Shown here one piece after another: positions 39,567-45,632 of a stretch of 64,000 nucleotides of DNA. The position numbers and the translations under genes are program-made. This DNA is from a virus, in IMG/VR virus record IMGVR_UViG_3300045988_107537, positions 1-64,000 of that record. One strand, given 5' to 3'. Below the pieces are notes generated by a model, which did not search any database, was not told where the DNA came from, and worked only from the letters and a program-made list of their open reading frames with translations. The first letter of the stretch is position 1; each line of letters begins with the position of its first letter.

Positions 39567-39641
39567 TCGAAATGCTTTACAAACTTCCTGTGATTCTTCA
39601 CAGGCAATTAAAACTCGTAAGATTACACATTCCTCCTTTTC

Positions 39642-39662
39642 ATATCCTGTATTATATAGCTA
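39642..39662 (-). promoter_or_regulatory. Conserved motif copy (TAGCTATATAATACAGGATAT) upstream of the methyltransferase genes.
   Basis: Read directly from the sequence. Confidence 0.45.
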
Positions 39663-39763
39663 AAACTTTAAAAATGAGCGAAAAATAATAGACGTATTAA
39701 CGTCATATTATTCATTCGCTTATAAAACAAAAGTTCTAGCAGGTTTTATGTACGCCCTATCGG

Positions 39764-39855
39764 GCTGGTGGGACGTAAGGGACTCGAACCCCTGTGAGGT
39801 GTTATTCTCATCACCCGGTTATGAGCCAGGAGCTTTAACCAACTAAGCTAACGTC
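39764..39855 (-). tRNA. tRNA with anticodon CAT (Met/Ile2-type) and an atypical ~20-nt variable arm; CCA is encoded.
   Basis: A cloverleaf was folded by hand with acceptor GGGACGT/ACGTCCC, T-arm GGGGTTCGAGTCCC and anticodon loop CTCATAA. Confidence 0.55.
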
Positions 39856-39960
39856 CCATGCAAACGCCGACTTTCATCGGCGCGATGCCAGTGAAGGAAT
39901 CGAACCTTATCTCTCGGTGTTTCCGAGCGCTTTTACCATTAAGCTATCCAGCCGTATACC
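39856..39960 (-). other. tRNA-like degenerate element (D-arm-like GCTTAATGGTAAAAGC, T-arm AAGGTTCGATTCCTT) with no consistent acceptor stem, followed by the hairpin CGCCGATGAAAGTCGGCG.
   Basis: Hand folding found no consistent cloverleaf. Confidence 0.3.
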
Positions 39961-40082
39961 TCAGAATTTAATTCTCACTATCCAAGCTACGTCGCGTTCC
40001 AATATGATCACTCTTGGCAACCATGTCGTAACATATAGGTTTCTTTCGGCTCTGAGTAACCGGTGCAGCGTAAGGGGCTGCG

Positions 40083-40158
40083 TGTGGAGCGACTGACGGG
40101 GTATGATCCCGCAACATTCAGATTGGAAATCTGACGCTCTGCCAATTGAACTACAGTC
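40083..40158 (-). tRNA. tRNA-Gly (anticodon TCC), CCA encoded, non-canonical T-loop ATCATAC.
   Basis: Acceptor GCGACTG/CAGTCGC and anticodon stem TCAGA/TCTGA with loop TTTCCAA. Confidence 0.8.
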
Positions 40159-43042: not shown

Positions 43043-43111
43043 TGTTTTCTCCCTTTTACTTAACGCATTATCGTTATTTATTCATTTCCAATTCTTTATA
43101 AAATGTCTATT

Positions 43112-43495
43112 TTAGTTCAACTCTTCCAGCTTCTTCATCAGCTGGTCTACGTCCATATCTTCCAGCTCCTTGTCCTTCTTCTTTGCCACAATCTTCATAA
43201 TCTTATCGCGCTGCGCCTTCTTCTCGGCTGCATCCACACGAGCCTCAGATTCAGCCAGCTTGACAGACACGATATACTTGACCAGCTCAATCTTGTTTGC
43301 CAGTTCGGTATCTTCGGCACTCTTAACAGCCAGCAAGGAGTCTTCGTCTGCGGTCTTCTTCTGACGATTCAGGGTCTTAAAAATCGCATCTAGTGCCTCG
43401 ACACTCAGATCCCACAGATCTTCAACAGTCATAATACCCTTATAGTTGAAGCGATAGCGATTACGGGTTGCAATTTCAAACAGATTCTTTTCCAT
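43112..43495 (-). CDS. Hypothetical Lys/Glu-rich coiled-coil protein.
   Basis: A 127-aa ORF. Confidence 0.5.
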   Translation of the reverse strand: MEKNLFEIATRNRYRFNYKGIMTVEDLWDLSVEALDAIFKTLNRQKKTADEDSLLAVKSAEDTELANKIELVKYIVSVKLAESEARVDAAEKKAQRDKIMKIVAKKKDKELEDMDVDQLMKKLEELN

Positions 43496-43509
43496 AATAA
43501 TTTCTCCTC

Positions 43510-45579
43510 TTAAATAACAACTTTCATAACCCGCTCAGTAGCGCCCTGAACCTTGACAACAAAGGAATCATGTTTCGTCTCAGAGAACCCAACGCCGGAC
43601 AGCTGGTCATCTACCGACTGAACTGCCATCTGAGAACCAAGAGCCTCGAATACTCGCTTATGCTGTAGCAGTTCCGCCTTCAGGAATTCATTGTAGAATC
43701 CATTGGGCTTTTCAGGGTTTACACAATCCTTGAGCATGAAGAAGTAATGACGATTACCGTTACCACTCTGCTCGTCCCAGTAGTTCGGAGAATACATTGC
43801 TACGGACACCGGTACAAACTGATTGGAATTCACACCCCAGATCTCGCGGGTGCTGGTAGAACTGGGCAGCAGCTCCTTGATAGAGAACTTACCATCCTTC
43901 AGTGTGACTTTTGCCACGGCGACATTCTGACCACCGTGCAGCGGCTTATCGTAGTTGAAAGAGTAGATATTGCCATCGAACTCGATCTCGGCACGGAAAC
44001 CGGTTTTACCGCCACGACTAGCAAAGCAGTTCACATAGAAGCTGTACTCGCCTTCCTTCATCTTTTTGATGTCAGGCCAGGTAATATTCTCGACCGCAGC
44101 TTTACCCTGATTAGGATGAACGATATCAACATCCAGGCGGCCATCAGTACGAGGATGCCACTTACTGCCAAAATAGATATGATTCTTATCGGGTTCAATG
44201 CAATGAGCATCCTCATCATTTGCATCGTACTTACCCGGCACATCGTTCCACTGAATAGAGAAACGCAACACGCCATCAACTTTGCCGCCAGCATTCTTGA
44301 CGTTTTCCCGAATATCGCTGTCTGCCATATTGCCGGTATACGCCCAACTGAAACCATTTGCCCACTTAAACATGCTCGGCGCATTTTTATCCTGCGGAGC
44401 AATCAGAGACACCATGTTCTTCGAGAACCGATTCTCCATGAACAGTTCTAGGCCGGTCGCAGTCGGCAGCACGTCTTTGATAAACTTGTCAATACAAATT
44501 TCCTCTGCACGACCAAACTTCTTGGGATCAATCGCAACAGTCTTAGCCATTGCCTCAAACGGATTTGTAACACCAGCAATACGAGGAGCAGCATCACGGT
44601 TGCAGAACAGGATATTGTTTGCGGTAATATCGTCCAGAGTAGCAAACCGACGACCCAGACTATTCATATAGCCCAGTTCAGTGACGGTTTTCTGTGCATC
44701 CTCCAGCATCTTCTTGGTGAAAATTGCTTTTGGACGCTTATAGTTTGCGGGAGCAACAACTTTCTCGAAGGCAGTAACGGCTGCATCCACGTTCATACCC
44801 TCACTCAGATTTACCAGCAAAGTACCGATAGCGGTGTTACGGATACGAAGCCGGTTCATCGAAGCTCCGCCGGGAGCCATCCAAACATAAGCGGACTTCT
44901 TTTCATCAGGCAGACGATCATACACTTGCTTATCGATTTTGAAGCCACGAACCAGAGATTCAAATTCCTTACCACGATACAGACTATTCTGTGCAATCAG
45001 CTCCAGAACAGTATCAACAGCATCCATGGTCAGTTCTTCCAGAGAACGCTTATATACGTTTGCGGAATCACGCCACTGAGCCATCTTGGTAGCCACATCA
45101 TCTCCACTGGTAATAAAATGCTGCGGAATCTTGACTGCGAAATGATCCCAAGTATGCACATCCTTGTTGTTTTCATCGTACTCGTAGTTCATCTCGGTGC
45201 CGAACATATTGCCAGAACCGATCATATTGCGGCTGATAAAGTACGGATTCACAATAATGCGGCTCTTCACATAAGCATCCAGAGCGTCCACAACAGGCTG
45301 ATACTTGACAGACTTTGCATCAAAATCCCACACAGTAATCATTTTTCCATCATCAAACGCTACTAGCTTGCCGATATTCTTCACGAAACGGCGGCAGCAG
45401 GAACAGTCATACTCGCGCCGCTTACGGAACAACTCATTCGTGCCAGCCGGGAAGCTGTCGAGATACAGATTGTACAGTTCATCCTCGTCTGCATCGGTGA
45501 TAAACAGAGGGTTTTCGCCCTTCACCATCTCATTGAAGTGGTCCTGCAGCAGTGCACGAAATTTCTTGAAATCAGACAT
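43510..45579 (-). CDS. Large uncharacterised protein (~690 aa) co-operonic with the Pnkp-like gene; a weak ligase-like KVDGVLR motif lies in the C-terminal third.
   Basis: The start is refined to MSDFKKF with a GGAGAA RBS; the track extension runs through the upstream terminator. No confident family assignment. Confidence 0.6.
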   Translation of the reverse strand: MSDFKKFRALLQDHFNEMVKGENPLFITDADEDELYNLYLDSFPAGTNELFRKRREYDCSCCRRFVKNIGKLVAFDDGKMITVWDFDAKSVKYQPVVDALDAYVKSRIIVNPYFISRNMIGSGNMFGTEMNYEYDENNKDVHTWDHFAVKIPQHFITSGDDVATKMAQWRDSANVYKRSLEELTMDAVDTVLELIAQNSLYRGKEFESLVRGFKIDKQVYDRLPDEKKSAYVWMAPGGASMNRLRIRNTAIGTLLVNLSEGMNVDAAVTAFEKVVAPANYKRPKAIFTKKMLEDAQKTVTELGYMNSLGRRFATLDDITANNILFCNRDAAPRIAGVTNPFEAMAKTVAIDPKKFGRAEEICIDKFIKDVLPTATGLELFMENRFSKNMVSLIAPQDKNAPSMFKWANGFSWAYTGNMADSDIRENVKNAGGKVDGVLRFSIQWNDVPGKYDANDEDAHCIEPDKNHIYFGSKWHPRTDGRLDVDIVHPNQGKAAVENITWPDIKKMKEGEYSFYVNCFASRGGKTGFRAEIEFDGNIYSFNYDKPLHGGQNVAVAKVTLKDGKFSIKELLPSSTSTREIWGVNSNQFVPVSVAMYSPNYWDEQSGNGNRHYFFMLKDCVNPEKPNGFYNEFLKAELLQHKRVFEALGSQMAVQSVDDQLSGVGFSETKHDSFVVKVQGATERVMKVVI

Positions 45580-45611
45580 TGTTATCATTCTCCATTCAAA
45601 TACTATTTTCT

Positions 45612-45632
45612 GTATCCTGTGTTGTATAGTTA
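45612..45632 (-). promoter_or_regulatory. Conserved motif copy (TAACTATACAACACAGGATAC) upstream of the 690-aa / Pnkp operon.
   Basis: Read directly from the sequence. Confidence 0.4.

Follow-up and report, generated by a model that had tools for sequence, protein, structure and literature searches.

A predicted trifunctional RNA repair enzyme encoded next to a tRNA array in a phage genome

We analysed a 64,000-nt stretch of DNA of a large gut phage (positions 1 to 64,000 of the IMG/VR record IMGVR_UViG_3300045988_107537; hereafter the window), which encodes a 736-aa protein that is probably a self-contained 'heal-and-seal' RNA repair enzyme aiding translation together with an adjacent tRNA array; this reading explains the evidence best overall. 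Cleavage of tRNA is a common anti-phage strategy of bacteria, used by PrrC, retron effectors, PARIS and Cas13a, and to our knowledge the two-enzyme pathway of T4 is the only phage repair pathway that has been studied. With three predicted repair activities in one protein, which should work partner-free, the enzyme is an easy target for biochemistry; it is also a possible single-enzyme reagent for RNA end-repair and ligation and a probe for gut-bacterial defences that cut tRNA. The family occurs in cultivable SPbeta-like and Twort-like phages, and the likeness of its ligase domain to Trl1 may be informative about how the fungal tRNA ligase arose.

Domain composition of the repair protein

The repair gene (40832..43042) lies on the minus strand, as do the tRNAs, hairpins and two upstream genes described below. 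Its product combines a polynucleotide 5'-kinase domain (about aa 1-155, 42578..43042), a binuclear metallophosphoesterase domain predicted to act as a 2',3'-phosphatase (about aa 170-395, 41858..42535), an RNA ligase adenylyltransferase domain (about aa 415-666, 41045..41800) and a helical C-terminal domain of the ligase with four helices (about aa 667-736, 40835..41044). Every motif quoted in the original prediction is present in this ORF, namely GAPGCGKST of the kinase (residues 9-17), GDVHG, GDYLDRG and GNHE of the phosphoesterase (180-184, 206-212 and 238-241), and KENG, EGFVLRD and KLKLP of the ligase (506-509, 651-657 and 664-668). All three domains exceed the Pfam cut-offs in an HMM search: AAA_33 matches residues 4-142 (4e-23), Metallophos residues 175-353 (2e-15) and RNA_lig_T4_1 residues 458-670 (1e-40, 140 bits against a cut-off of 28). 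The fold of the ligase domain is that of a genuine RNA ligase. The catalytic residues of all three active sites are invariant among 35 homologues of 50-62% identity, and the structure model of the protein is confident (pLDDT 89.6).

The intact three-domain enzyme, the RNA-ligase fold and the tight linkage to a tRNA array within the phage lineage, described below, make an RNA repair enzyme the best reading of this protein. Pnkp-type kinases and phosphatases are generally known to act on DNA ends in vitro as well, and the gene is set in a replication and nucleotide-metabolism region, both of which would suit a DNA PNKP plus ligase for DNA ends whose proximity to the tRNAs is coincidental. A role in DNA-end processing is nevertheless unlikely, and that reading as a whole seems to us barely credible, as the ligase domain falls within the RNA-specific Rnl1/Trl1 group and the phage encodes a separate ATP-dependent DNA ligase (20500..21831), so that the ligase of the repair protein is not required for DNA. 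RNA repair is also indicated by the neighbours of homologous genes. In L086, L095 and L096 the repair gene is directly followed by RlaP, with Thg1 and YAcAr nearby, and in roughly 28 of 80 close relatives it is preceded, at a distance of about 3 kb, by an RlaP-like gene. The family is a large one, with about 1000 clusters at 50% identity, and full-length homologues in SPbeta-like, Twort-like and other phages are annotated as "RNA ligase".

Ligase type and predicted end chemistry

The likeness to bacterial Pnkp that had been proposed for this protein holds for its healing half and fails for its sealing half. The N-terminal P-loop polynucleotide 5'-kinase and the central lambda-phosphatase-like binuclear metallophosphoesterase are shared with CthPnk-type enzymes, and the healing half has its origin in the lineage of bacterial Pnkp. 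The ligase of bacterial Pnkp, in contrast, is of the Rnl4 type, which the phage domain is not: it has the Rnl1-type N-subdomain and motifs I, III, IIIa, IV and V of the Rnl1 family (Pfam PF09511). The NCBIfam model of bacterial Pnkp, TIGR04075, covers only residues 4-303 with 79 bits, against a cut-off of 750; this score and the ligase type rule out membership of the bacterial Pnkp family.

In the Pnkp/Hen1 system an adjacent Hen1 activates the ligase, whereas the phage locus has no Hen1 and none is expected, since this Rnl1-family ligase should not need it. A scan of the window covering most minus-strand ORFs of at least 120 aa revealed no Hen1-like methyltransferase, Tpt1, 2H phosphoesterase or RlaP. 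The earlier impression that no Hen1-like methyltransferase is visible thus applies to the neighbouring genes, to the scanned ORFs and to the neighbours of the homologues.

The C-terminal tRNA-specificity domain of T4 Rnl1 type (about 120 aa) is absent, and the sealing half combines a ligase of the Rnl1 family with a small helical C-domain that appears to resemble that of fungal Trl1. A PDB profile search with the C-domain alone did not find Trl1; a pairwise hhalign comparison was added. In Trl1 the domains follow the order LIG-KIN-CPD, the ligase being fused to a GTP-dependent kinase and to a 2H cyclic phosphodiesterase that performs 3' healing, whereas the phage protein lacks such a fusion, has the reverse order with the ligase last, and would heal 3' ends by its metallophosphatase. 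A further difference is that no Tpt1 was found among the scanned window ORFs.

The 2'-phosphate requirement of Trl1 is enforced by a triad of His227, Arg334 and Arg337 (PMC11404444), of which only the histidine is kept in the phage protein: the aligned equivalents are H577, which is invariant among the 35 homologues, K671, which is variable with a family consensus of Asn, and K674, an invariant Lys. Healing by wild-type CthPnkp yields 2'-OH ends, which T4 Rnl1 seals, while its H189D mutant produces 2'-PO4 ends for Trl1 (PMC1920235). The corresponding residue of the phage phosphatase, H183, is the histidine by which the C. thermocellum enzyme makes 2'-OH,3'-OH ends. Since H183 is kept and the Trl1 triad is kept only in part, a T4-type pathway with an ordinary phosphodiester product would be expected, rather than the yeast 2'-phosphate pathway. 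This predicted end chemistry is uncertain, because the invariant H577, K674 and R677 could form a 2'-phosphate site.

Whether the Trl1 (Rnl6) clade truly includes this viral ligase domain is a matter on which we lean slightly towards the negative. As far as we know, that clade has so far been defined from fungi only, with kinetoplastid enzymes proposed as further members. If the membership is true, phages of Firmicutes carry the closest relatives in the prokaryote world of the eukaryotic tRNA-splicing ligase, and the fusion of a Trl1-type ligase with healing domains of the Pnkp type, which generate 2'-OH ends, would represent a naturally occurring hybrid between the 'T4' and 'yeast' pathways, bearing on the origin of Trl1 and on the rise of its 2'-phosphate requirement. 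Phage RNA-repair gene sets were reportedly surveyed by comparative genomics by Burroughs and Aravind in 2016. The concept of phage tRNAs acting in counter-defence with Rnl1/Rnl2 ligases, polynucleotide kinase, phosphoesterases and RlaP is shared with Iyer et al. 2021 (PMC7824862), which mentions a few jumbo phages in which calcineurin-like phosphatases have this role and is a survey rather than a biochemical study of the fused architecture. In the literature that we searched on phage RNA repair, we found no biochemical characterisation of this architecture and no mention of a Trl1-like C-domain.

The two upstream genes form an optional insert

The block containing the repair gene begins at a terminator-like hairpin (45647..45663; G+C-rich, followed by a T-run), which lies immediately 3' of the stop codon of the preceding gene and closes that gene. 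A combined terminator/promoter module had been placed at 45612-45677; the hairpin and T-run bear out the terminator, and a sigma-70 promoter scan, in which shuffled sequence gave more matches than the real sequence, found no match at the proposed promoter site.

Two genes separate this hairpin from the repair gene. The first (43510..45579) encodes a 689-aa protein of PHROG 1735 with a possibly TerD-like beta-sandwich, whose start is the ATG at residue 74 of a 762-aa ORF beginning with TTG, where the PHROG alignments also begin; the second (43112..43495) encodes a 127-aa protein of PHROG 2018. The original prediction listed ORFs of 127 and about 690 aa and suggested that their products are partners in the repair system. 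Both genes are real; the suggested partnership does not stand. The pair is present in 7 of 80 close relatives and absent in the other 73, where the same terminator hairpin stands immediately before the repair gene (for example in L001), and it constitutes a 2.5-kb insert between the conserved hairpin and the repair gene. Presence and absence among the 80 relatives, together with these insertion boundaries, rule out obligate repair partners.

We also consider it decidedly unlikely that the two proteins serve RNA repair as accessory factors. Apart from the 73 relatives that keep the enzyme and tRNAs without them, the conserved pair occurs in at least 544 records of phages that belong to unrelated groups, standing by itself in genomes of Ackermannviridae and Herelleviridae and of Caulobacter, Vibrio, Microcystis and roseophages, with no Pnkp-like gene in the 5-6 kb flanks examined. 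Neither gene has a sequence match in Pfam, NCBIfam, PADLOC or PDB, and their third-position G+C of 0.53 and 0.59, against 0.43 for the window, suggests that the pair was imported recently. The 689-aa and 127-aa genes are thus an independent optional insert outside the repair machine, and the annotation of the window is corrected by removing two supposed partner proteins.

The tRNA array and its linkage to the repair gene

ARAGORN predicts seven tRNAs between 39766 and 40763, on the same strand as the repair gene, and all seven are confirmed by Rfam with 45-61 bits. In the direction of transcription these are tRNA-Leu (CAA) at 40682..40763 (Rfam 45 bits), tRNA-Leu (UAA) at 40593..40676, tRNA-Pro (UGG) at 40510..40585, tRNA-Gln (UUG) at 40351..40421, tRNA-Leu (UAG) at 40264..40345, tRNA-Gly (UCC) at 40085..40160, and a 92-nt tRNA with a CAU anticodon and a long variable arm, called as 'Met', at 39766..39857. 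The last of these is probably an AUA-reading tRNA-Ile; its counterpart in the relatives L033, L035, L063 and L073 has the anticodon UAU. An eighth Rfam match at 39886..39952 (30.1 bits, gathering score 29) is a weak tRNA-like remnant; relatives have either another tRNA-Gly or a 'His' tRNA in this part of the array. The stop codon of the repair gene is 68 nt from the first tRNA, in agreement with the previously described cluster of seven tRNAs about 70 nt past the stop, including three Leu isoacceptors. Terminator prediction found no terminator between the repair gene and the first tRNA, and placed a terminator-like hairpin after the last tRNA (39691..39704).

The coupling of repair gene and tRNAs that had been proposed is tight within the lineage of the window, where 88 of 89 loci have the array 3' of the repair gene, and does not extend to the whole family: in 16 of 27 lineages no tRNA was found within 6-8 kb of the repair gene, and the homologues in SPbetaL2 and Twort have no annotated tRNA in the 5-kb flanks examined. 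Three further 70%-identity clusters have tRNAs within 500 nt of the gene. In L144 there are a Leu-CAA tRNA at +72 and a Leu-UAA tRNA at +161, neither of which is detectably similar in DNA sequence to the tRNAs of the window, and in L228 and L231 tRNAs Leu-UAG, Pro-UGG, Gln-UUG and Leu-CAA are found just upstream of the gene. Direct adjacency is only modestly in excess, being found in 4 of 11 clusters, with a binomial P of 0.006 to 0.06 depending on the choice of a crude null.

A real repair enzyme beside an array that merely supplies tRNAs for rare codons of a phage of 36-46% G+C, their adjacency being inherited gene order, is possible, though we rate this appreciably below an even chance. The codons read by the seven anticodons all end in A or G and are minor in the phage (TTA 10%, CTA 8%, ATA 9%, CAA 26%); this comparison covered phage codons only and is not decisive, and the match suits rare-codon supply and tRNA replacement equally well. 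The many enzyme lineages and cultured relatives without nearby tRNAs agree with such a supply function, as do the mobile inserts in the region (an HNH endonuclease, the 689-aa/127-aa pair and RlaP), which would be expected of a loose accessory region. Against it, adjacency recurs in four lineages and in different arrangements (the tRNAs follow the repair gene in the window and L144 and precede it in L228, L231 and L244), the tRNA species involved are repeatedly the same, and no predicted terminator separates the repair gene from the first tRNA.

On the preferred reading of an RNA repair enzyme acting with the array, the most likely function that we infer is to heal and seal cleaved tRNA in the manner of T4, with spare tRNAs as a supplement. 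The repair gene and the seven tRNAs lie in a hairpin-bounded stretch and are perhaps transcribed together. Judging from homology, after cleavage of tRNAs by host nucleases the central metallophosphatase would strip the 2',3'-cyclic phosphate that metal-independent RNases leave on the 5' fragment, the N-terminal kinase would phosphorylate the 5'-OH of the 3' fragment, and the C-terminal ligase would adenylylate itself on Lys506, transfer AMP to the 5'-phosphate and join the ends. Cut tRNAs would thus be rejoined and fresh ones supplied, plausibly keeping translation running. Host anticodon nucleases are the presumed target; phage tRNAs overcome tRNA-cleaving defences (PMC11555353), and Cas13a cuts tRNAs with uridine-rich anticodons (PMC11042736).

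Genomic setting and host

A PemK/MazF-type RNase gene is located at 46648..47067 (PemK toxin domain, 3.8e-19), with its own strong promoter-like site, TTGACT-17-TATAAT. In each of the 89 loci of the window lineage, and in four other clusters, a homologue precedes the repair gene by 1.5-8 kb, and Pfam recognised no antitoxin gene adjacent to the toxin gene. It is conceivable that the repair enzyme is a functional antidote to this RNase, limiting or reversing damage to needed RNAs while the toxin cuts RNA for host shut-off or phage exclusion; we think such a pairing unlikely. The association may mirror a shared SPbeta-like backbone, PemK is near the repair gene in just 3 of 80 loci from bacterial genomes, and an upstream 108-aa ORF could be an unrecognised antitoxin.

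A megablast comparison with known phages gave one match only, to an unannotated faecal contig over the part encoding the 689-aa protein. Among genome representatives no close relative was found, only homologues of 46-51% identity in Clostridia; their presence in genomes of Lachnospiraceae and Oscillospiraceae suggests that the host is probably a member of the Clostridia.

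Domain architecture of the repair enzyme

The gene at 40832..43042 (-) encodes a 736-aa protein that was originally predicted to be a Pnkp-like kinase-phosphatase-ligase, and all of the motifs on which that prediction drew are present in the reading frame. An HMM search matched all three domains in Pfam: a P-loop kinase (AAA_33, residues 4-142), a calcineurin-like metallophosphoesterase (residues 175-353) and an RNA ligase of the T4 Rnl1 family (PF09511, residues 458-670; 140 bits against a cut-off of 28). The PHROG 8238 'RNA ligase' profile (737 positions) matches the protein end to end (2e-226). 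In an alignment of 35 homologues (50-62% identity), each of the three active sites retains its expected catalytic residues without exception, the invariant positions being K15, D32, R35, D80, R119 and R123 in the kinase, D181, H183, D207, D210, R211, N239, H240, H300 and H349 in the phosphatase, and R460, K478, F479, K506-x-N-G, E568, H577, E651-G-F-V, K664 and K666 in the ligase.

AlphaFold gave a confident model from this alignment (pLDDT 89.6), in which residues 401-413 are a disordered linker. The top five Foldseek matches to this model are Trl1 structures (target TM-score 0.63-0.67, with T4 Rnl1 at 0.55-0.57), and a plain sequence search of the PDB places Candida glabrata Trl1 first (1.7e-17; T4 Rnl1, 8e-7); no structure of a Pnkp ligase domain is among the best matches of either search. 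Membership of the bacterial Pnkp family was rejected, as the match to the NCBI model ends after the first 300 residues and scores 79 bits, below the cut-off of 750. Therefore, the repair enzyme is a mosaic of a Pnkp-type healing half and an Rnl1-family sealing half that most resembles Trl1, and the predicted Pnkp-like identity holds for the kinase and phosphatase, which are of the same type as in bacterial Pnkp, but not for the ligase. Since Hen1 is needed only for activating a Pnkp-type ligase, it would have no role here, and its absence from the scanned ORFs of the window (most minus-strand ORFs of 120 aa or more) is expected rather than puzzling. The protein is best described as a predicted Hen1-independent, single-chain heal-and-seal RNA repair enzyme.

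RNA ligase clades are told apart by the part appended to their adenylyltransferase core, and Trl1 founds the Rnl6 clade on the basis of an 80-aa, five-helix C-domain (PMC6379707). The C-terminus of the repair enzyme is predicted to comprise ~70 residues in four helices. Its ligase alignment to Trl1 is ~65 residues longer than that to T4 Rnl1; HMMER alignments to Trl1 run to residue 732 and have a 'GII-LRNEF' stretch in common, and hhalign comparison of the C-domain alone with two Trl1 C-domains gave P values of 2e-4 and 3e-4. These three results suggest a Trl1-like C-domain; speaking against it, a profile of the C-domain alone did not find Trl1 in the PDB. The Trl1-like reading is likely, if unproven.

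Sealing by Trl1 depends on a 2'-phosphate, recognised through His227, Arg334 and Arg337 (PMC11404444). The equivalent of His227 in the phage family is the invariant H577, whereas neither arginine position is kept as arginine: that of Arg334 varies, with Lys in the window and Asn as the consensus residue, and that of Arg337 is an invariant lysine, K674, followed by an invariant R677. Wild-type C. thermocellum Pnkp generates 2'-OH,3'-OH ends, which are sealed by T4 Rnl1, and the 2'-PO4 ends needed by Trl1 are made only by its H189D mutant (PMC1920235); this histidine is kept in the phage enzyme as H183. These residues suggest that the enzyme would follow a T4-type pathway with a normal phosphodiester as product, consistent with the finding of no Tpt1 among the scanned ORFs of the window.

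Family distribution and neighboring RNA-repair genes

The repair enzyme matches 1019 representatives of 50%-identity clusters with E values of 1e-30 or lower, and the best 150 of these are nearly all full-length. Full-length homologues with 38-45% identity are encoded by cultured phages, namely SPbeta-like Bacillus phages, Staphylococcus phage Twort, many other Herelleviridae, and Brochothrix, Lactobacillus and Fusobacterium phages, where they are labeled RNA ligase, polynucleotide kinase, tRNA ligase, phosphatase or hypothetical. The bacterial homologues come from Clostridia genomes and are prophage-like in appearance.

RlaP is a nucleotidyltransferase of the polymerase-beta type whose name reflects its association with RNA ligases. 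It is encoded directly 3' of the homologue at three loci in relatives (L086, L095 and L096), with Thg1 and YAcAr nearby. An alternative role for the enzyme, the processing of DNA ends, is therefore unlikely, as some of its homologues adjoin RNA-repair genes and the window encodes a separate ATP-dependent DNA ligase. An RlaP-like gene is also found ~2.7-3.5 kb upstream of the repair gene, 5' of a PemK gene, in ~28 of 80 close relatives (L006, L009, L030, L043, L044 and L079 among them), and is absent from the window; this stretch behaves as a variable RNA-repair island.

Comparative-genomic surveys have already cast phage tRNAs as counter-defence in combination with genes for Rnl1/Rnl2, kinase, phosphoesterase and RlaP, and one names calcineurin-like phosphatases in this role (PMC7824862). 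In the literature searched we found neither a biochemical study of a fused kinase-phosphatase-ligase enzyme nor a mention of a Trl1-like ligase in phages. The repair enzyme is a variation on a known RNA-repair theme, widespread yet uncharacterised. An anti-nuclease role may reasonably be inferred by analogy with T4 and recent phage-tRNA work (PMC11555353, PMC11042736).

The tRNA array and its linkage to the repair gene

ARAGORN and Rfam agree on the predicted cluster of seven tRNA genes just 3' of the repair gene and on its strand (Leu-CAA, Leu-UAA, Pro-UGG, Gln-UUG, Leu-UAG, Gly-UCC and a 92-nt tRNA with a CAU anticodon), the first lying 68 nt past the stop codon. Rfam also detects a decayed tRNA-like eighth copy at 39886..39952 (-). 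The 92-nt tRNA, called as Met at 39766..39857 (-), has a variable arm of unusual length, and its gene encodes the CCA; since its anticodon is UAU in several relatives, it is probably an AUA-reading isoleucine tRNA, the CAU form of which would require lysidine modification. G+C-rich hairpins with T-runs are located at 45647..45663 (-) and, past the last tRNA, at 39691..39704 (-), with no terminator predicted between them. A terminator/promoter module had been proposed at 45612-45677; the upstream hairpin is terminator-like, but no sigma-70-type promoter was found at that site. With the exception of this promoter, the gene arrangement of the original prediction is real.

The repair gene and the array occur together in all 80 close-relative loci (88-99% protein identity). 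A wider sample of viral contigs and bacterial genomes provided 246 loci that encode a full-length homologue, and single-linkage clustering at 70% identity divided these into 27 lineages. Four lineages have tRNAs within 500 nt of the homologue, 11 have them anywhere within 6-8 kb, and 16 have none in the 6-8 kb flanks; adjacency in four of 11 corresponds to P between 0.006 and 0.06 under a crude uniform null. At L144, a locus whose repair protein is 48% identical to that of the window, Leu-CAA and Leu-UAA are found at +72 and +161 (from 5552), an exact match to the window, and no DNA similarity to the window's tRNAs was detected in this region. At two further loci, L228 and L231, Leu-UAG, Pro-UGG, Gln-UUG and Leu-CAA are directly upstream of the homologue. 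Against coupling, SPbetaL2 and Twort have no annotated tRNA in the 5-kb flanks examined. Therefore, the linkage is real in the window lineage and recurs above expectation, but is no defining trait of the enzyme family: the proposed coupling is lineage-specific but recurrent. A further point against coupling is that the codons read by the array are minor ones in the phage's own codon usage, which fits rare-codon supply and replacement of cut tRNAs equally.

Distant homologues (46-50% identity) in other lineages thus have tRNA species of the window's array beside them (Leu-CAA, Leu-UAA, Leu-UAG, Gln-UUG and Pro-UGG), in varied arrangements. Relatives also differ in carrying an additional Gly tRNA or a tRNA called as 'His(AUG)'. 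In L010, a relative's locus, a 198-aa HNH endonuclease gene (10761..11357 (+)) is inserted between two tRNA genes, and other relatives have a ~1-kb gap at this position, between tRNA-Leu(CAA) and tRNA-Leu(UAA).

An optional insert upstream of the repair gene

The two upstream reading frames are real, encoding 127 aa (43112..43495 (-)) and 689 aa (43510..45579 (-), from the ATG at 45579). The pair is present in seven of the 80 close-relative loci (L003, L004, L063 and L067-L070). In the other 73, the recombinase-like gene found at 45668..46594 in the window is followed by a hairpin and the sequence 'TTGATTTTAA...AACACAGGATAC', both as in the window, and the repair gene comes immediately next, which makes the pair a 2.5-kb insert within the repair-gene leader. 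Its third-position G+C is 0.53 and 0.59, compared to 0.43 for the whole window, and in the window it behaves like a mobile insert.

The same large-then-small gene pair is found in Salmonella phage GG32, Bacillus phage BCP78, roseophage DSS3_VP1, Microcystis phage MaMV-CH02, Caulobacter phage S2L and a Vibrio phage. The pair is a conserved module: at least 544 phage records, spanning widely different families, contain a homologue of the large gene, labeled 'hypothetical protein' in nearly all records listed, and no Pnkp-like gene was found in the 5-6 kb flanks of the examined records carrying the pair. The supposed partner proteins, being missing from 73 of 80 close-relative loci, are not obligate for RNA repair and are an unrelated optional module. 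There is a small probability of some link to repair, because four other lineages have the pair no more than 8 kb from a Pnkp-like gene and DSS3_VP1 has it near an Rnl2 ligase. In the 689-aa protein, an N-terminal CxxC...H motif is accompanied by a helical M2-1-like domain and a putative TerD-like beta-sandwich in which acidic residues are conserved. Further loci noted for this module are L081, L082, L090, L092, L093 and L094.

Other genes near the repair locus

A PemK/MazF-type RNase toxin gene is located at 46648..47067 (-) (Pfam, 3.8e-19), with a near-consensus promoter-like site (TTGACT-17-TATAAT) at 47139..47111 (-) and no recognisable antitoxin beside it. All 89 window-lineage loci, and four other lineages, have a PemK homologue upstream of the repair gene at a distance of 1.5-8 kb. 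Such a phage toxin would make exactly the RNA ends that the repair enzyme should heal.

Between PemK and the insert, a 308-aa gene (45668..46594 (-)) weakly resembles tyrosine recombinases (MrpR N-terminal domain, 2.8e-4; PHROG integrase, 2e-12); it keeps this position throughout the lineage and, at 28% identity, at the loci L087-L089. Two clearer integrase genes are present elsewhere in the window, at 201..1394 and 52909..53787. The window also encodes a 522-aa Band_7/flotillin-like protein (15059..16627 (-)); a Band_7 protein is encoded just 3' of the repair-gene homologue in L087-L089 (L087 10560..11459) and near the homologue in several other lineages.
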